DNA from: Escherichia phage vB_EcoS-EE09
Direction: 5' to 3' (one strand)
DNA: 44,198 nucleotides
Sequence record: OR756193.1
The position numbers and the translations under genes are program-made. Numbering within the stretch: position 1 is the first letter of the stretch; each line of letters begins with the position of its first letter. The notes under the pieces were generated by a model. The model was not told the origin of the DNA. It was given only the letters and a program-made list of their open reading frames with translations, and searched no databases. This document shows, piece after piece, positions 2,530-35,543 of this stretch.

Positions 2530-3105
2530 ATGTACGGCGAATACGAAATAACCGGCAAACAATTCCACCTGGCGGCAATGATAGCAAGCATCGAGTTTGA
2601 CCAGTGGCGATACAAGTCTGACGCGTGCAAGCAAAGCCGTCTTGTCGGTGTGCTTGGCGAGATGTTTGCGGGCATGTACCTCGAAGGGCAGGCGGGCGGG
2701 CGTAGCTGTATTCCGCAAGGTTTGTTAATGCGTACCGGCCTGTTTAGCGCTAACACTATCGACCGCGGCGATATTATCATGGTCGGCAAACGCAAGGTAA
2801 AGTCTGGTCCAGACTTCCGCGAACATATGATTGATGCCGTCTGGACCTACGAGGTTAAGGCTACCAGCGGCATCCGTCGCGGACTGGTTGAGGCACGTTG
2901 CGCTCGCGAGTATCTCACTCGTCGAGTTGCCGGTGTTATTCTGGTGGGGGTGTCGTTCGGGCAGCATAGCGCCAGCGGCGTGATTGAGGATATTGCAGAG
3001 CCATACGTGATAGTGAACGACGGGCCTTTAGTGGAAGTGGAAGGAACGGAATACTACGAAAGCCCCCTGGTGCGGCGCAAAATGGACTGGGAAAACTCAA
3101 ACTAA
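2530..3105 (+). CDS. hypothetical protein (191 aa), possible PD-(D/E)xK-like fold
   Basis: ORF track; RBS GAGGG; D...E-V-K arrangement (GDIIMVG ... TYEVKAT) weakly suggestive of a nuclease fold. Confidence 0.5.
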   Translation: MYGEYEITGKQFHLAAMIASIEFDQWRYKSDACKQSRLVGVLGEMFAGMYLEGQAGGRSCIPQGLLMRTGLFSANTIDRGDIIMVGKRKVKSGPDFREHMIDAVWTYEVKATSGIRRGLVEARCAREYLTRRVAGVILVGVSFGQHSASGVIEDIAEPYVIVNDGPLVEVEGTEYYESPLVRRKMDWENSN

Positions 3106-3131
3106 AAAAGGGGCCGCATGGCCCCTTCTAA
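3104..3131. terminator. bidirectional rho-independent terminator between convergent genes
   Basis: Perfect hairpin GGGGCC-gcat-GGCCCC flanked by an A5 run on one side and a T-rich run on the other; sits between the stop at 3105 (+) and the stop at 3132 (-). Confidence 0.75.
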
Positions 3132-4952
3132 TTATTTCTTCAACGCCGCGATCTCGGCTTTCAAATCCTCCACTTCCGCCGACAGGCGTTTACACTCAGC
3201 GATCGCATATTGTGCGCACCCCATCAAGTCCATCACGATAGGGTTAACGTCTACCGACGGACGGTCGCGCGTCTTACCCCCGACGATGGCGTTAGTCTCG
3301 GGGTCCACCTCCACATCGTACGTCTCCTCTCGGTGTTTGATGTATTGAGGCGCAATCTCTTCTGCTTCCTCGGCAATGATGCCGAAGCGGACGCGCTCCT
3401 GCACATCGTCCTTATACACGTAGCGCACCATGCGCATTTGTTCAATGCGTGCAACCGCTTCGGTAACGTCCGCGTCGGTAATATCTTTCTTAAAGTCCCT
3501 TCCTGATGTACCCTGGAGGGCAATAACACCACCAGATGAGGGCCAGTTGACTGTGAAGCCAGTGCCGTCTCCCTTCTCAAAATATTTATAGATCAGGTTA
3601 CTATTGATATTAACCGTATCCCACATCGTGCGGAAGTTACCAGCCGGGACGGTAGCTTTTCCGTTGTTTAGAACGAAAGACAACGCTGAAGCTGTCTCTG
3701 TTGGGCGGACCGTGATATCTCGATGACTCATCATGCCGCTTATCCCCGATCCAGAGATCTCCATAACGGTATCGCGGTACGCGCCCGACGCGTCATATGA
3801 GTGCAACTTAAAATTGCCCGCGGCGTCGTTAATCCCCATGCGCCAGCGTACTTTATCGGCGGAATCAGCCCAACATACGCCACCAAAGCCCGACCCGTTC
3901 TGCTTAAGGATTAATCCATCTTGGGAGTCGCCGTTAGATTTGAATTGGCGGAACTCGGCGACGTTATCGCCGCGCCCCGTACCACCGAATGCAATCGGCA
4001 GCGGCATGGCTTTATTGTTGGCATTATCCCACCCGCCCCAGTCGCCATTTTCCTTAACGAAGATCCATTTATTCTTCGCCGCAGTCCTGATTTGTGTTTC
4101 GCCGCTGGTTATGTTTTGCGTTAGGCGGTCTACACCAATGTTTTCGCGCGCCACAGCCACATCCGCAACATCACTTAAGTTGTTGGCCTTCGCAAGTAGG
4201 TTTTCCGGGTTAACACTATTAGCGAATTGTTCGGCCTCATTGCGAAATCCTTGCGCGGCAGTGCGGGCAGCTTGCGCGTCCTCCTTCGCGGTATTGGCTT
4301 CATCACGAATAACGCCAGTGTCAGTCTTGATCTGATTCGTTTGGTCCTTGATCGCCTGCGTATCTGCCTTAAGTTGAGTGGTCTGGTCCTTGATCGCCTG
4401 CGTATCTGCCTTAAGTTGGCTGGTCTGCGTCTTGATGGTGTTGGCGTCGTTCTTGAAGCCTTCCGCCTCGTTACGGAATCCTTGCGCGGCTGCTTCCGAT
4501 GCGGCGGCTTGTTGTTGCAGGTTGCGCATCTCAACGGGGTCTACTTCCTTCAGCAAAGACGACAGGTAGCCCCACGACATACCCTGCATAACTTGCCCGT
4601 TCGGGAGCGTGACTGTGATTTCTTCAGCATCGCCGAAGATTGCACGCCAGTTGTTTTCATCTGCAATCATCAAGCGCAATGCTTTTTGGGCCTGTACGGT
4701 AACGCCCATCGTTGCCAGCGACATGGTATCGCGCTTAACGCCATCCCACGCAAGGCCGGTTGCCGTCGGGCCGTCGAACGGCAGCACCAGCGTAAGCGCC
4801 GTGTTACTTTCGATTGATGCGATCGCCACGGTGTAAGGCACTTGTCCTACCACCAGCGTTAAGAAGTCGCCAGCTTTAAACGCGGTAAACGTTGTGCCGA
4901 CCCCTACTACCGCCTTGCTGTTGTTCGTTACGGATAGAGTACCCGCTGCCAT
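3132..4952 (-). CDS. tail fibre protein with C-terminal intramolecular chaperone (peptidase S74-like) domain
   Basis: ORF track (track start at 4979 is a TTG inside the ATTGGTTGCA motif; ATG at 4952 with RBS GAGGA preferred); C-terminus has S-G-R-D-F-K-K-D-I followed by VRYVYKDD...RFGIIAEEAEEIAPQYI and a terminal coiled coil, the pattern of auto-cleaving chaperone domains of phage fibres. Confidence 0.75.
   Translation of the reverse strand: MAAGTLSVTNNSKAVVGVGTTFTAFKAGDFLTLVVGQVPYTVAIASIESNTALTLVLPFDGPTATGLAWDGVKRDTMSLATMGVTVQAQKALRLMIADENNWRAIFGDAEEITVTLPNGQVMQGMSWGYLSSLLKEVDPVEMRNLQQQAAASEAAAQGFRNEAEGFKNDANTIKTQTSQLKADTQAIKDQTTQLKADTQAIKDQTNQIKTDTGVIRDEANTAKEDAQAARTAAQGFRNEAEQFANSVNPENLLAKANNLSDVADVAVARENIGVDRLTQNITSGETQIRTAAKNKWIFVKENGDWGGWDNANNKAMPLPIAFGGTGRGDNVAEFRQFKSNGDSQDGLILKQNGSGFGGVCWADSADKVRWRMGINDAAGNFKLHSYDASGAYRDTVMEISGSGISGMMSHRDITVRPTETASALSFVLNNGKATVPAGNFRTMWDTVNINSNLIYKYFEKGDGTGFTVNWPSSGGVIALQGTSGRDFKKDITDADVTEAVARIEQMRMVRYVYKDDVQERVRFGIIAEEAEEIAPQYIKHREETYDVEVDPETNAIVGGKTRDRPSVDVNPIVMDLMGCAQYAIAECKRLSAEVEDLKAEIAALKK
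4341..4424 (-). repeat. two near-identical 42-bp tandem repeats inside the tail fibre gene
   Basis: TGGTCCTTGATCGCCTGCGTATCTGCCTTAAGTTG(A/G)(G/C)TGGTC twice with degenerate flanking copies; encodes 14-aa repeats (TQLKADTQAIKDQT-like). Confidence 0.8.
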
Positions 4953-4968
4953 AGCTAAATCCTCGTAA

Positions 4969-4978
4969 ATTGGTTGCA
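4969..4978. promoter_or_regulatory. ATTGGTTGCA motif in the divergent region between tail fibre and lipoprotein genes
   Basis: Exact 10-mer shared with 20819, 20832, 44170, 44187 and, in reverse, 1893, 31484, 31515, 34812. Confidence 0.5.
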
Positions 4979-5032
4979 ATCCTGGTTGAGCGGTGTAATA
5001 CTAAGACTCAACCAAATATAGGAGATGATAAC

Positions 5033-5251
5033 ATGAAAACTTTAATTATGATTTGTGCGGTTCTTCTGTCTGGTTGTGCCGGTATGCCGTCTAAAATCTG
5101 CGACGCGACGTACCAGAATAGCGGCATGGATTACTCAGTCCCCGTGTTTGGGGTTGCAGACTTCTCCGGGCATAAAATGCTAAGGGCTGGCTATCCGTTT
5201 AGCTTCCAGTACGTGTCGGTCAACCACTTCAAAAGCACCACCTGCAGATAA
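5033..5251 (+). CDS. small secreted lipoprotein (72 aa); candidate Cor/Llp-like superinfection exclusion protein
   Basis: RBS AGGAG 8 nt upstream of ATG; signal peptide with lipobox (MKTLIMICAVLLSGC); opposite orientation to the surrounding tail genes, terminator hairpins on both sides. Confidence 0.65.
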   Translation: MKTLIMICAVLLSGCAGMPSKICDATYQNSGMDYSVPVFGVADFSGHKMLRAGYPFSFQYVSVNHFKSTTCR

Positions 5252-18979: not shown

Positions 18980-20080
18980 TTAAGACGCGGTAGTCGCAGT
19001 CAGCGTAACCAGTACGCCAGCCGTTTCCTTGATGTGACGGGTAGGCACTTCCTGTGCGGCCTGGGTCTTACGACGGCCTTTAGTATCGCCGTCGCCAACA
19101 GCGCCAACATCCTGAACGGTTGCCGGTGCGTTGTCTACTTGGCCCTGATCCAGTTCCCAGTTAGCGGAAGTGGTGATGTCGGACAGTTTGAACGAGCGAA
19201 CACCTTCGACCGGAGTACGTGCGGACGCCTTCAGACGATAGCCTTTAACCGCCACGTTGAAGTCGAACTCGCCCTGCCACCAACGTTCGATGTTCTCGTT
19301 ACCGCCTTTCTCCTGCGCCAGCATATCAAGACCGTTGGTGGTAACTGCAACCGCGCCAGGGACCAGACCCAGCATGTTACCCGTGCCCATAGCATCGGCA
19401 GCGGCATCGGAGATAATGAAGCGACGGCCCAGGCCATCACCCATTACCTGGAGATCGCCAATTGCGAATACCTGTTCAGCGGAAGGGAGTGCCTGGTACG
19501 CAATGAAGTTTGCCCAGGTAACGCCGTCCATAAACCAGGACTTAATCAAAGACGCCTGATCGCCGAACTTAGAAGCCGCCAGCGGGAAGTCTGCCAGGGT
19601 CGGGAAGGTACGACCGCCAACGCCGTCAACGCGCGCCGGTTGGGTGTATTTTGCCGCTGCGTTGCTCTCGATCGCCGCTTTACTTGCGCCGATGCCAGCC
19701 TTCAGGTAATGCAGCATAATCGCTTGAGTAGCCTGTGCCGCAATCTCAGCCGCAACGCTGTTAACGTTGGTTTCGATTTTAGCCATCATAGCCTTAGTGA
19801 TTGCTACCGGACCCACTTTCGCGGACAGGTTGACGGAGTTGGTCAGCATACGCGCCAGCACTTTTGCGGTCGCCGGAGTACCGACAGGGGCATAGGCGTT
19901 ACGGTCGGTAACGAGGTTGGCGATCAAGCCTACGGACATTTTTTCTACAACATCCTTCAGCACTTCACCCGTGCCGAGAACAACAGCACCGTTAGCGGCA
20001 GCGTTGAACACGTTCAGGTTATCGGGGATCATTTGCGTAACCGCGGTGACGAGTTTACGCTGGAACACTGTTAAAGACAT
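18980..20080 (-). CDS. major capsid protein (366 aa)
   Basis: RBS AAGGA 7 nt upstream of ATG; Ala/Gly-rich protein flanked by terminators, downstream of portal and scaffold-like genes. Confidence 0.8.
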   Translation of the reverse strand: MSLTVFQRKLVTAVTQMIPDNLNVFNAAANGAVVLGTGEVLKDVVEKMSVGLIANLVTDRNAYAPVGTPATAKVLARMLTNSVNLSAKVGPVAITKAMMAKIETNVNSVAAEIAAQATQAIMLHYLKAGIGASKAAIESNAAAKYTQPARVDGVGGRTFPTLADFPLAASKFGDQASLIKSWFMDGVTWANFIAYQALPSAEQVFAIGDLQVMGDGLGRRFIISDAAADAMGTGNMLGLVPGAVAVTTNGLDMLAQEKGGNENIERWWQGEFDFNVAVKGYRLKASARTPVEGVRSFKLSDITTSANWELDQGQVDNAPATVQDVGAVGDGDTKGRRKTQAAQEVPTRHIKETAGVLVTLTATTAS

Positions 20081-20149
20081 ATCGAAATCCTTTGAGTTGT
20101 GAGCATTCGCCCAGTACCGTTAATGTTACCTTAGATTTACGCGCTCGCA

Positions 20150-20175
20150 AAATTGCCCGCGAAAGCGGGCAATCT
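20150..20175 (-). terminator. terminator-like hairpin between scaffold-like gene and major capsid gene
   Basis: ATTGCCCGC-tttc-GCGGGCAAT hairpin followed by TTTTG on the minus strand. Confidence 0.5.
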
Positions 20176-20177
20176 GC

Positions 20178-20716
20178 TTACTCGTCGCCCATCTTAGCGA
20201 TGATTTCACCGGCCTGTTTCGTTAAGTCAGTGATACCGAAGCTGTGGCCCATAGTGATTTTAGACTTCACATCCTCGACAACCTGCGTCGGTTTGCTCGG
20301 TGCACCACCGGCTGGCGTGCCTGCCAGGACGGATGCAAAATCGGCGTTATTACGGAACTCTTTTTCAAGCTCTTCCATAGTCAGCGCGGACGGTTTGCCA
20401 TCCTGCAGGACACGCACCTTCAAGCTGCCGTCTTCGCCGTCTTCCAGCGTCAGGCGGTCCATAACGTGGCGTTGCATGATCCCGGCATTCTTACCGAATA
20501 GCTTCGACGCCAGGTCTTTGGCAGCGCTTCGGCGCGGCGTTCTGCTTCTGCTTTCTTCTCGCTCACCAGCTTCGCGTTGTTGTCTTTCAGACCCTTGATC
20601 TCCGCCTGTACTTCTTCGGCGGTCATGAACGTTGATTTATACCCGTCACCATCGGCAACAAAAAGCGCCTTCATACCTTCCGGCAACGCGTCATATTCTG
20701 CTTTAGTAAGTTTCAT
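20178..20716 (-). CDS. putative scaffolding protein, split into two overlapping frames
   Basis: Strong RBS AGGGGGA before ATG at 20716 (MKLTKAEYD...); frame A reads through a coiled-coil-like stretch then degenerates and stops at 20450; the -1 frame is open from about 20540 and continues as ...AAKDLASKLFGKNAGIMQRH... to 20178; no slippery site seen. Confidence 0.45.
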
Positions 20717-20805
20717 GCTATCCCCCTGGGATTGTGGCAAAGCGGGCCACCCGCTTGACTTCACGCCTTAATATTATCAGCGATAAAAATAATCGCAAAA
20801 TTCGC

Positions 20806-20841
20806 TTGCAATCCGCGTATTGGTTGCATATATTGGTTGCA
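20806..20841 (+). promoter_or_regulatory. candidate sigma70-type promoter with tandem ATTGGTTGCA motifs
   Basis: -35-like TTGCAA, 17-nt spacer containing ATTGGTTGCA, -10-like TATATT, then a second ATTGGTTGCA; 17-nt identity ATTGGTTGCACACCAAC with the reverse-strand motif upstream of the gene starting at 31460. Confidence 0.45.
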
Positions 20842-21628
20842 CACCAACAACGAGGACACAAAAAAGAGACTGACTAAAGACATTAAAAATCAGATTCTGG
20901 CTAACATCCTGCGCGACCACGAAATAGCGACAGAAGCAAAATCAATAATGATGGACTCGCGCGACCTGGCGTACGCCATTACGCTGGACTGTATGCCAGA
21001 AGGCATTCGCACGTTCGCCGAGCTACTCGCGCGCATTGAAGCAATCGGCGATGACCCGTCGCAGATGTACGGCGTCTGTGTATACACCAACAAGGCGACG
21101 TATAGTTATAACACCGACCGCCCGAAAGGCATCGGCAGCGTTTACGACGCCACTTTCGAAATCAACGCAGGCGGAAACGTCCGTACCGTGTCATTGAGCG
21201 GAGACGGATACCGATTCCGAGTACATCGCGGATACTGGGAGTATAAATACATGAATAAACTGTCTCCCGATCTCGGCGATATTGTGCCAGGGTATGAGGA
21301 AATTTTGTTAGCGTCAGTGTGCGAAGTCGACGACGACGGGAAAGCACTGCCGATATATCTCCCACGCGGCCGTGTAGACTACCCGGCGGATCATGATTTC
21401 TGTAAGCGCCTTGACCGTAACGATAAGGCCCGCCGCGATTTGCGAGCTAAGTATGACGCGTTCAAACTAACTGTTACCGGTGTGCTGGATATGCACAATA
21501 CCGATAAGAAGCTGATCAAGGAGTGGCCTGAAGTGGAACAGTTCATTCCTTACCCGGACAAGCCGAAGTCCACGGCGGTGGCGCTGGACGTTAAGACGTT
21601 AAACGAGATTTGCGGTATTCCGCGCTAA
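20837..21628 (+). CDS. hypothetical protein (up to 263 aa) on the opposite strand inside the head module
   Basis: ORF track; start uncertain (track start is a TTG inside the promoter motif; first in-frame ATG near 20947); own promoter-like region upstream and terminator downstream; no motif recognised. Confidence 0.55.
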   Translation: MHTNNEDTKKRLTKDIKNQILANILRDHEIATEAKSIMMDSRDLAYAITLDCMPEGIRTFAELLARIEAIGDDPSQMYGVCVYTNKATYSYNTDRPKGIGSVYDATFEINAGGNVRTVSLSGDGYRFRVHRGYWEYKYMNKLSPDLGDIVPGYEEILLASVCEVDDDGKALPIYLPRGRVDYPADHDFCKRLDRNDKARRDLRAKYDAFKLTVTGVLDMHNTDKKLIKEWPEVEQFIPYPDKPKSTAVALDVKTLNEICGIPR

Positions 21629-29983: not shown

Positions 29984-30556
29984 TCATTTCAGAATCACCG
30001 AGCGCGGGTCAATGGCTTTCATGCTGCCGTCTTGTTCCACCCGGATGAATCCAACGCCATATTCCTGCGCATGGCGCTGTGCATTCGTGACGGCATCAAA
30101 GCGATTGACGATTTCGTGTACGGCACGGCCCATCTTCGCTTGCACCTGGTGGGCGTCGTAGGTTGCGTAGGCGGGCTGCGACTTGCGGAACTCAACGCGC
30201 TCATGCGGCTGGCGGTTGCGCAGGCAGTATTTGCGCCCCACTCGTTCAAAGTGGATTAGCCCAAAGTACGTCATCCCCCTAATCATGTTGCCCGATACGC
30301 CATCCTTGCGGGATTGCATACGCAGGCCATGACGACCGACATACTCGACGACCCACAATTGCCCGTCGCGAATATCACGCAACACATCGCCGCGCTCAAT
30401 ATCGTGTGTGAGGACTTCGAAGAACTGCGGCAATGTGCCCTTCGATGCGCGGAATACCCGATCGCTTGCCGCGTGGTGCAAGCGGACGTAGGAATCCAGG
30501 GTCTGGATCGGCTTCAGTATGCGACCGTCTGATTTGCGGCGGAATAGTAATCTCAT
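29984..30556 (-). CDS. hypothetical protein (190 aa)
   Basis: ORF track; start overlaps the stop of a 50-aa upstream ORF (ATGA); no motif recognised. Confidence 0.55.
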   Translation of the reverse strand: MRLLFRRKSDGRILKPIQTLDSYVRLHHAASDRVFRASKGTLPQFFEVLTHDIERGDVLRDIRDGQLWVVEYVGRHGLRMQSRKDGVSGNMIRGMTYFGLIHFERVGRKYCLRNRQPHERVEFRKSQPAYATYDAHQVQAKMGRAVHEIVNRFDAVTNAQRHAQEYGVGFIRVEQDGSMKAIDPRSVILK

Positions 30557-31940: not shown

Positions 31941-34282
31941 TTAATCTTTCAGGTCATCATCGGTCGCCGAAAGCGTGATGGGTATATTTGTTTTGATGAC
32001 GATATTCGACGACCCATAGATGGCCCCGGTGTGCGGATCTGTATAAAAACCTAGCACGCCGCGATCCACCATATCGTCTATTGCCTTCGTCGATGTGCCA
32101 CCTTTTGCCAATCCCGCCTGGCGGACGATTGCCGATTTACTGAATCCGGTATGGTCCGGGTTATCTTCCATCAGTTTTTCCAGTGCCGCATAAAGCACTT
32201 TCTCTTTTTCGTTGCGCGGCCCCGCGGCATTTTCTTCCTTAACTGCGGCTTTGCCAGCGGCCTTTGCCTGCTCAATAGCGAACGGTGCCAGGGCGACCGG
32301 TACGAGATACAGAGTCTCGTCGCGTGGCGTGGACGCGATCGGCTTGACGTCCCAACCGGCAACCACATCGCCGAAGTCAGGCCCGGTGCTGGTGGACTGG
32401 TGCGATTCGAACGCCTCGGACTTGCGGAGATCCACCTTAACCTTGCACTTGAGCAGGACGAATCCGCGCGGCGCTTGCTTGATGCCGTTACGTGCCTTTT
32501 CGTGATACAGGTTCAATTGGCCTGGTTGATTGTCGTCCGGTTGCTCCAGGAAGAACGCAGAATCAACAGCACCATGCAGCGCGCCGGACCCGCGTGGGGA
32601 TCTGCTGCCGTTTGCACCCTTCGCCGGGTGGTGGATGACGCCCGCACTGCCGCCTGTATTTTCCGCGATGGCCTTCAGCGCCTTGACCACTTCGCCCATA
32701 TCGCTGGCGTTGTTCTCGTCGAACGGTTTAGCATCGGCGGACCGCAGCGCAACAGTCTGGTTGAGTGAGTCGAACGCCACCAGGCCAACCGGTTCGCCGT
32801 TAGCGGTGCGGTTGATAAAGCTGATAACTTCACGCAAGCCGGATTTGCTGGTGATATCCCAGCCGCGAGATTGCAGGTCGATAATGTGCAGCTTGTCCAG
32901 GTCGTGCTCATATTTGATCTGCAATGCTTCCTTACGCTGGTTGGAGGCTTCGCCACCTTCCGCGTCGAAATAGAAGCAATGAGACTGGACGACCTTCGCA
33001 CCACCGAACGGGATCCCCGCGGCAACCGCACCCATTTGGCCCAGCACGTAGAACGATTTACCGATGTTCGATTCGCCAGCCATATACCAGGTCGATTTGA
33101 AGTTGACCAGGCCTTCTATGATCGGGTCGTGCTTACTGAACAGTGCGACCGGTTCGTTATCCAGGTCAGCGTCGGTACATACGCCGTACTCGTCGCCGTC
33201 TCCGACCGCATCAACGATATGCGCATAGCACGATTCCACTTCCTCGTCGTCCAGTCCTGGGAGGATGGCGGCGATTTGCTTACGTGACATGTTGTGCGGT
33301 TCGACGTTCAGGTGGTCCGGGATCCCGATAAGACGTAGCGCCAGGTGCTGGTGTCTGTTCAGTTCCGAGCAACACTCGTTGCCGGTGTGCATACACTTGA
33401 AACGGATCTCGCCATCCTTAACCATGATAGCGGTGGACCCTTCGCCGCTGTGCAGGTGTTCGTTCGGGCATGGCACTTCATAACCACGACCGGACGACAG
33501 CGGTTCGAATCCTGCCTGGAAGCACCAGTCCAGAATTCCGTCCGTTACGCCAGCGTCGCCCTGGGTCAGTTCGCGGCGCACTTCCTCTTTTTCCACTCCC
33601 CGCTTATCAGCCAGGCGGAGCAGACGACGGACGCGGGCGCGCTTGCCATAGTGGCACTTAATAACAGACTGCTGGTGTGGCAGGTACATCAGGCGGTTTG
33701 TGTCTTTCGTGCAGTCGTCGAAGTCCACATCGGACAAACCAAGTTGGTGTAATAGCGCATACTGGACGCGGCCCAGGTCTTCCGCCGGTACAGGCTTGTC
33801 GGTCAACACCAGGAAACGGGCGCAACGCGTGGCGCATACTGGACGCGGCCCAGGTCTTCCGCCGGTACAGGCTTGTCGGTCAACACCAGGAAACGGGCGC
33901 AACGCGTGCCGCCTTTCAGCGGGTGGCGGTCGCCGGTTGTGGTGTGAAATACGTGTTCCAGCCCCGCGTCAATGAACGCCTTACGGCAGCGGCGTAGGGT
34001 GCGGGTGTCGGTACGGTCGATATCAAAGAACAGGATCGAGCGGTCCACCGCACTGGTCTTACGACGCAATCCGTCACTGGTATACGCCACGATGCCATCG
34101 GCCTTACGCTTGCGGCGCGCATACTCGGCTTTATCTTCCGTCTTATTGATATGCACCGAGGAGATTTCTTTCGCATCATTGATAAATTCGAAAAATTCAT
34201 CGGTGGTCATCTGGAAGTTTTCCGCCCTGGCTTTTTCGCCTTTTTTAGCGGGTCTTGTTACAGCGAATTTAATTAAGCTCAT
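31941..34282 (-). pseudogene. DNA primase-helicase (AEP/PrimPol-like N-domain plus P-loop NTPase), frame broken by a 77-bp tandem duplication
   Basis: N-terminal ORF (33803-34282) has the AEP motif LFFDIDR and a conserved His; the C-terminal ORF (31941-33902) has a Cys/His cluster and Walker A GESNIGKS; both contain TRCARFLVLTDKPVPAEDLGRVQYA; removing one 77-bp copy gives a single 2265-nt (754-codon) frame. Confidence 0.7.
33755..33908. repeat. perfect 77-bp tandem direct duplication (two copies)
   Basis: 33755-33831 is identical to 33832-33908 (GCGCATACTGGACGCGGCCCAGGTCTTCCGCCGGTACAGGCTTGTCGGTCAACACCAGGAAACGGGCGCAACGCGTG). Confidence 0.9.
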
Positions 34283-35024: not shown

Positions 35025-35543
35025 ATGTTTGAGCAAATCGTAAACCTGATCACTCGCGGCGTAGTAGCACTGGAAACCATCGCTAAACATTATGAAACCG
35101 TTGGCGCTGCCGTTGGTAAGCAGGAAGACAAGAAGCCGTCTAAGGCCAAAAAAGAAGTTGTCGAAGATGACGACGATGAAGTCGAAGACGAAAAACCGGC
35201 TAAATCTAAAAAAGCCCCGGCGAAAGGTAAATCCAAAAAAGAAGTCGTAGAAGATGACGACGACGAGGATGCCGAAGATGAAAAACCGGCTAAGTCTAAA
35301 AAAGCACCGGCGAAAGGCAAAGGTAAGAAAGATGCCGATCCGCTGGCGGAGATGCGCGACGAAATCAAACAGTATGCCGCGATTATCGCCGGTGGCGATG
35401 ACGACGATGCGAACGACGAATTCGACGACCTGCTGGAATCGTTCGAGATCAAATCAATCGCCAAGCTGGAAGATGACGACGTCGAAGACTTCCACAAAGA
35501 GCTAAAAGAAATCGTCGAAACCTATTTCGAACTGGAAGATTAA
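35025..35543 (+). CDS. highly charged repeat protein (172 aa), first gene of the rightward early operon
   Basis: ORF track trimmed to the ATG with RBS GGAGA 6 nt upstream; two tandem ~29-aa repeats KKEVVEDDDDE..EDEKPAKSKKAPAKGK; strongly acidic C-terminal half. Confidence 0.65.
   Translation: MFEQIVNLITRGVVALETIAKHYETVGAAVGKQEDKKPSKAKKEVVEDDDDEVEDEKPAKSKKAPAKGKSKKEVVEDDDDEDAEDEKPAKSKKAPAKGKGKKDADPLAEMRDEIKQYAAIIAGGDDDDANDEFDDLLESFEIKSIAKLEDDDVEDFHKELKEIVETYFELED

Follow-up and report, generated by a model that had tools for sequence, protein, structure and literature searches.

Scaffolding proteins are essential in the phages that have a separate one. N-terminally truncated fragments of the P22 scaffolding protein gp8 still drive procapsid assembly, and its C-terminal fragments are a precedent for a coat-binding C-terminal scaffold part that suffices for procapsid assembly. 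For the HK578-like coliphages (Dhillonvirus), the head scaffolding protein belongs to phrog_206 and is represented by HK578 gp7 (YP_007112614.1) and by the NHEP3 protein XUK81966.1. The gene under study lies in a window of 44,198 nucleotides, which is the whole stretch of DNA that was analysed, and has the same locus, ribosome-binding site (RBS) and stop codon as these two genes, but where they encode one product of 233-234 aa it displays two overlapping open reading frames (ORFs), 88 and 99 aa long. Both parts that remain agree with the NHEP3 protein at every residue (100% identity). Two overlapping ORFs in the 0 and -1 frames inside a structural cluster are also a feature of the lambda G/GT-type tail assembly chaperones, which depend on a programmed -1 frameshift; the window differs from that type in having no slippery heptamer, in a layout that occurs in no relative and in an overlap made by a deletion unique to this sequence. 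Very probably, the lesion is an ordinary gene-breaking deletion of 163 nt in a single head-scaffolding gene, and not a one-base slip, a recoding site or two genes. With the same high confidence we regard it as a defect of one particular sequence, not as an evolved gene arrangement. The scaffold gene itself is already known and a disruptive lesion of this kind is ordinary.

The window is a Dhillonvirus genome whose closest overall relative is SM_W22 (92.7% identity over 22 kb). Compared with SM_W22, its two ends (44198/1) follow directly on each other, and they carry no terminal direct repeat; the window is therefore a complete genome in an arbitrary circular permutation. The gene order is the usual one, i.e. 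portal, head-morphogenesis, Nmad5-like, scaffold and major-capsid genes. The major capsid gene (20080..18980) is found on the same strand directly downstream of the scaffold gene, with the portal and head-morphogenesis genes upstream, and one gene of this series has the opposite orientation:

20837-21628, plus strand: Nmad5-like gene (PF18757 in homologous contigs), located between the head-morphogenesis and scaffold genes and opposite to them in orientation

Phages can escape from the Tmn defence system through missense mutations in the Dhillonvirus nmad5 gene, and a Lys126Thr change in the head scaffolding protein was also present in one Tmn escape mutant (PMC11846954).

At the scaffold locus, a preliminary description of this DNA had reported two overlapping minus-strand ORFs, the first one behind a strong RBS at ATG 20716, and had taken them for one scaffold-like gene between the portal and capsid genes. 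Each of these observations was recovered in our analysis, as listed here.

20721..20727, minus strand: Shine-Dalgarno (SD) sequence of the scaffolding gene, AGGGGGA, which pairs with the 3' end of the 16S rRNA at -9.4 kcal/mol
20450..20716, minus strand: ORF A, the N-terminal scaffold remnant, 88 aa, with ATG at 20716 and TGA at 20452-20450
20178..20528, minus strand: C-terminal scaffold remnant, native codons 118-233 and the stop, in the -1 frame relative to ORF A
20178..20477, minus strand: ORF B, 99 aa, whose start is the internal Met135 codon of the ancestral gene

Of the 47 gene starts compared in the window (median -5.9 kcal/mol), none has a stronger duplex than AGGGGGA, which ties for first place. 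ORF A is composed of 64 native codons (20716-20525) followed by 24 out-of-frame codons and TGA. Its translation starts with MKLTKAEYDALPEG and runs to ...AERRAEA, the native part ending ...AKLVSEKKAEAERRAEA before the out-of-frame tail LPKTWRRSYSVRMPGSCNATLWTA. Residues 1-64 are 100% identical to residues 1-64 of the SM_W22 protein, and the tail is an out-of-frame reading of conserved codons. When the SM_W22 protein was used in tblastn, its residues 118-233 were found at 98.3% identity, in another frame than residues 1-64. This second frame, previously described as open from about 20540, is in fact open from 20636 and makes sense from 20528 only, where it reads SAAKDLASKLFGKNAGIMQRHVMDRL...AKMGDE up to the TAA at 20180-20178. 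The first ATG, GTG or TTG start that it offers is ATG 20477, so that ORFs A and B, which lie between the head-morphogenesis and major-capsid genes, overlap in two different frames. Upstream of ATG 20477 there is only GGGA, 2 nt from the ATG, with an SD duplex of -4.1 kcal/mol; this places it among the weakest quarter of real starts, and out of all plus-strand ATGs in the window 23% do equally well. The SD context of ATG 20462 is poorer still.

Alignment of positions 20100-20800 with NHEP3 and HK578 exhibits one clean gap of 163 nt, the sequences being otherwise 95-97% identical.

20525..20529, minus strand: deletion junction, 163 nt missing between A20529 and G20525

The trinucleotide AGC at 20528-20526 is a microhomology of 3 nt common to both breakpoints, which in NHEP3 read ...GCCGA-AGC-CGAGCG on the left and ...ATCGGC-AGC-GCTGCC on the right. 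The frame break, which had been placed inside 20521-20545, is thus located at 20529|20525. The gap of 163 nt equals 54 codons and one extra base; it therefore takes away residues 65-118 and puts what follows of the scaffold gene in the -1 frame. No N-run and no homopolymer is present at the junction, and the 163-nt segment is absent from the remainder of the window, where a relocation was looked for. A chimeric join of two phages was also considered and rejected, there being no clear change of nearest relative across 20529|20525.

The preliminary description had instead attributed the split to a single-base indel or homopolymer miscall near 20521-20545, in a gene for a protein of about 180 aa. 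One added base near the junction would indeed formally fuse the two frames, but the resulting product of 179 aa would be devoid of the most conserved central motif. Moreover, the 163 nt that are missing here are present in every relative, the intact protein has 233-234 aa and the junction contains no homopolymer, and we consider this explanation to be almost certainly wrong. A lesion of the kind imagined does exist, in the scaffold gene of JBDIZM010000028.1, a 43.9-kb Dhillonvirus-like contig in assembly GCA_039748995.1 (L070; loci 2598-3300 and 4557-5058), but it is different from that of the window. Indeed, this contig keeps the 163 nt and its scaffold gene is split by one extra A in a homopolymer (GAGGAAGCC -> GAGGAAAGCC). 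It is also the only record of the exact 99-aa product of ORF B. In the same contig the adjoining head-tail adaptor gene is split into ORFs of 91 and 67 aa and the Nmad5 gene is shortened. These lesions are typical of homopolymer errors and the frameshift is unrelated to the window deletion.

In the Dhillonvirus relatives, every scaffold gene inspected is one ORF of 233-234 aa. A 101-nt query centred on the junction matched 158 phage records, and in each of the 60 rows taken at even intervals from this ranking the query aligns in two pieces that together span 260-264 nt and so exceed its own length by 163 nt; the 163-nt segment of NHEP3 is likewise present in 158 records (at least 80% coverage). 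Wherever contigs with an identical capsid protein contain the complete upstream region (L071, L072), the scaffold gene there is intact and encodes 233 aa. The annotation 'hypothetical protein (x2)' found under some matches is not a split scaffold and corresponds to one intact scaffold CDS together with an ORF call on the opposite strand. In a search of 5.8 billion proteins, the listed 120 homologues, whose identity goes down to 29%, have lengths of 218-269 aa, with the exception of one 172-aa entry labelled partial by NCBI, and none of these 120 has about 88, 99 or 180 aa. No match to the junction was obtained in IMG/VR, with either a 33-mer or a 20-mer, or in E. coli genomes and prophages; the 44 metagenome and 19 genome matches of the 20-mer are contigs of unrelated soil bacteria or Verrucomicrobia that do not contain the longer junction. 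By exact protein look-up, ORF A (in its 88-aa and 104-aa versions) and the Nmad5-like protein are not on record. The preliminary description had proposed to align both ORFs with the scaffold proteins of related phages, and in this alignment the homologues are one continuous protein; relatives encoding two proteins with the same overlap, which by that description would speak against one split gene, were looked for and none was found. It had also kept two genuinely separate small genes as an option. This option was rejected, since the SD of ORF B is weak and too close to its ATG, the tail of ORF A is out of frame and the relatives have no split counterpart with the same overlap.

Both ORFs match the profile of phrog_206 (head scaffolding protein), ORF A at positions 4-68 (E=1.8e-12) and ORF B at positions 163-253 (E=9.8e-17), while the intact NHEP3 protein covers positions 4-253 of 263 (E=5.7e-51). 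Since the two products match the same scaffolding family, the split is not due to chance. Positions from about 69 to 162 are covered by no called product of the window, and no single ORF of ~220-270 aa is found. The intact relative has a weak match to Pfam PF06810 (Phage_scaffold, formerly GP20) over residues 33-153 (15.5 bits, E=0.018), which is below the gathering cut-off of 35 bits required for membership in Pfam; the domain is present in one distant homologue (P0118) and matched by neither window ORF. With NCBIfam only a coiled-coil-type TolA match was observed, below the cut-off.

In an alignment of 45 sequences, the best-conserved central motif of the family, ARKNGDxEAxxKSW, lies inside the deleted 163 nt, and the deleted residues include the nearly invariant G80, A84, S88, K92 and V116. 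Other conserved columns belong to the retained C-terminal part, namely R142, G161-A165 (GKPSA), L171, E174 and G192. An AlphaFold model of the intact relative (pLDDT 80) displays the following predicted elements.

Residues 1-28: small N-terminal beta-hairpin domain
Residues 33-79 and 82-140: two long helices
Residues 143-164: small beta domain
Residues 168-177: helix
Residues 182-216: disordered linker
Residues 217-229: C-terminal helix

According to this model, the deleted stretch would extend from the end of helix 1 through the turn to two thirds of the way along helix 2. The missing piece thus holds the central motif together with most of the turn that connects these two long predicted helices; hence neither ORF A, ORF B nor a frame-restored fusion would be a normal scaffold. 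Searches for a PDB match to the model, by fold or by sequence profile, gave nothing significant, and BFVD returned only uncharacterised family members.

As suggested by the sequence, translation would start from the strong RBS with 64 native residues, continue past 20529|20525 with 24 wrong ones and end at 20450. This would leave the other 115 native codons in the -1 frame, without a convincing ribosome-binding site of their own.

Programmed -1 ribosomal frameshifting could in principle join ORF A to ORF B, which is in the -1 frame. The preliminary description had seen no obvious slippery site and had judged recoding unlikely. The first statement is true of heptamers, no X_XXY_YYZ sequence being present anywhere in ORF A, but it overlooks one tetranucleotide in frame (the slippery tetranucleotides of ORF A are only G_GGU, A_AAG and G_GGA).

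20516..20519, minus strand: A_AAG tetranucleotide (CCA AAG) in the frame of ORF A, the only place where a -1 slip rejoins the native C-terminal frame

This A_AAG is followed after 3 nt by a hairpin (20512-20466, -15.5 kcal/mol, z=-2.1, a modest significance), and A_AAG reportedly supports low-level -1 slippage in E. coli. However, the spacer of 3 nt is shorter than usual, tetranucleotide slippage is inefficient and its low yield would not suit a scaffold that is needed in high copy, and the fused product would be without the conserved central motif. Furthermore, the two-frame layout occurs in no relative, so there is nothing that selection could have maintained, and the relatives read the same bases in their normal frame as the ordinary codons GCC AAA GAC; nothing has therefore been selected for slippage. 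The A_AAG is an accidental by-product of the deletion and not a conserved recoding site. The second statement hence stands, and we regard programmed frameshifting as extremely unlikely.

A further alternative is that the split is functional, i.e. that the phage is viable with a minimal scaffold obtained through reinitiation after ORF A, in the form of ORF B or of a somewhat longer C-terminal piece. ATG 20477 precedes the stop of ORF A by 25 nt and ATG 20462 by 10 nt, and both would be reachable by termination-reinitiation. In addition, R142, which is invariant, the GKPSA motif and the C-terminal helix are all still present in ORF B, and the truncated fragments of P22 gp8 offer a precedent. As for P22 gp8, the model of the intact relative ends in a predicted isolated C-terminal helix after a disordered linker; the likeness stops there, since the protein has no sequence or fold similarity to any solved structure and ORF B is here predicted from sequence. 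On the other hand, the SD context of ORF B is weak, the conserved central motif is lost, the layout is seen in no relative, no natural homologue among the 120 listed is so short and the record is demonstrably uncurated. Altogether we hold a functional split to be very unlikely. It is with the same strong doubt that we consider a real deletion in a viable phage whose heads would be built with a C-terminal scaffold fragment of ~100-115 aa, obtained either through reinitiation at ATG 20477 or 20462 or through slippage at CCA_AAG. If this were true, the N-terminal domain, the long helical region and the ARKNGD...KSW motif would be dispensable for procapsid assembly in the phrog_206 family. A real deletion in a plaque-forming phage would, moreover, define a minimal scaffold for a large coliphage family used in phage therapy and in studies of defence systems. 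Nothing supports the minimal-scaffold reading over the ordinary ones.

In order to place the ordinary gene-breaking deletion in time, the retained 539 nt were compared with NHEP3 and found to differ at 13 nt without any amino-acid change. In addition, the three substitutions that are private to the window by comparison with six relatives are all synonymous in the ancestral frame. These 13 silent differences and 3 synonymous private changes indicate purifying selection until essentially the present. The deletion is then younger than any amino-acid change in the gene, that is to say very recent, or not biological at all.

The quality of the record bears on this last point. Among the 57 SM_W22 proteins that were mapped, the replicative primase-helicase (754 aa in SM_W22) is the only other one whose gene has its halves in different frames in the window.

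33755-33831 and 33832-33908, in a minus-strand gene: exact 77-nt tandem duplication, two identical copies with no flanking homology
34282..33803 and 33902..31941, minus strand: split primase-helicase ORFs of 159 aa and 653 aa

The duplication was absent from all 25 evenly sampled relatives (25/25). The largest default SPAdes k for 150-nt reads is 77, and the duplication reads as a SPAdes k=77 overlap left untrimmed at the ends of a circular contig and made internal by rotation; it is almost certainly an artefact. It resembles such an overlap in being an exact two-copy repeat of 77 nt, with no flanking homology and absent from relatives, but differs from it in its internal position, which requires a rotation after assembly. 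The window ends do join seamlessly against SM_W22. The presence of this artefact in the record implies that the sequence was not checked for gene integrity. With two essential genes broken, and at least one of the lesions almost certainly artefactual, the deletion deserves less trust as biology.

Two origins of the deletion were weighed. According to the first, it is a real and recent deletion allele in the sequenced DNA, produced by illegitimate recombination or replication slippage at the AGC microhomology, in a scaffold-defective genome that would persist only with intact co-infecting siblings or closely related Dhillonviruses or would have arisen during stock amplification; we place this at an even balance between probable and improbable. 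The 3-nt microhomology at the junction is consistent with it; a rough calculation gives this much homology for ~5% of random joins. If the assembly was of the de Bruijn type with k=77, as the exact 77-nt duplication suggests, the k-mers across the junction would have to come from reads. There is no sign of relaxed selection, as would be expected after a very recent event, and co-circulating Dhillonvirus scaffolds are 98-100% identical, so that complementation in trans is plausible. Conversely, a genome that is 0.4% shorter has no obvious advantage by which a defective allele would become the majority assembly path, and the junction is common to no other contig or record. The essential role of the scaffold also argues against a real allele, and a genome that has its primase-helicase broken as well cannot be taken at face value.

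According to the second, the deletion exists in the record only and is a fault of assembly, contig scaffolding or consensus, for instance an uncovered stretch dropped from the consensus or two contig ends joined without Ns. This is a serious possibility, to which we lean slightly less than halfway. In its favour, the same window holds an evident assembly artefact, the 77-nt duplication, that breaks another essential gene, and the scaffold gene is essential in comparable phages. However, de Bruijn assemblers do not normally create joins across 3 nt of homology, and neither an N-run nor a change of nearest relative marks the junction. Furthermore, the assembly is otherwise clean, ~53 of SM_W22's 57 proteins mapping without a frame change (two are without counterpart). 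Whichever the origin, the two ORFs are to be annotated as one disrupted scaffolding gene, and not as two hypothetical proteins or a recoding site, and the sequence as written, with its scaffold and primase-helicase genes broken, should be flagged for comparative or engineering use.

Other differences between the window and its relatives were observed. Two SM_W22 genes have no counterpart in the window, namely a 172-aa ORF (PP920555.1, 5855-6373) and a 63-aa ORF (30137-30328).

20717-20880, and the gap between 40955 and 40958: sites in the window of the two absent SM_W22 genes

Their absence is ordinary accessory-gene mosaicism between Dhillonviruses. Two tandem repeats are in-frame length variants. 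The one at 4342-4436 (period 42, 2.3 copies, 92% matches) is inside the homologue of a 529-aa protein of SM_W22, and the one at 35146-35321 (period 90, 2.0 copies, 87% matches) is in a small gene and accompanies a difference of 30 residues in length from SM_W22.

A scan of the scaffold region for promoters and terminators was uninformative, with one hairpin that fell short of the T-run criterion of the terminator scan.

20148..20170, minus strand: GC-rich hairpin GCCCGC-TTTC-GCGGGC followed by AATTTTG, directly after the scaffold stop and before the capsid gene

The loop of this hairpin (20155-20170, minus strand) is inverted by comparison with the relatives, the window reading GCCCGC-TTTC-GCGGGC where NHEP3 and HK578 read GCCCGC-GAAA-GCGGGC, which is a flip of the kind made by template switching within a quasi-palindrome.
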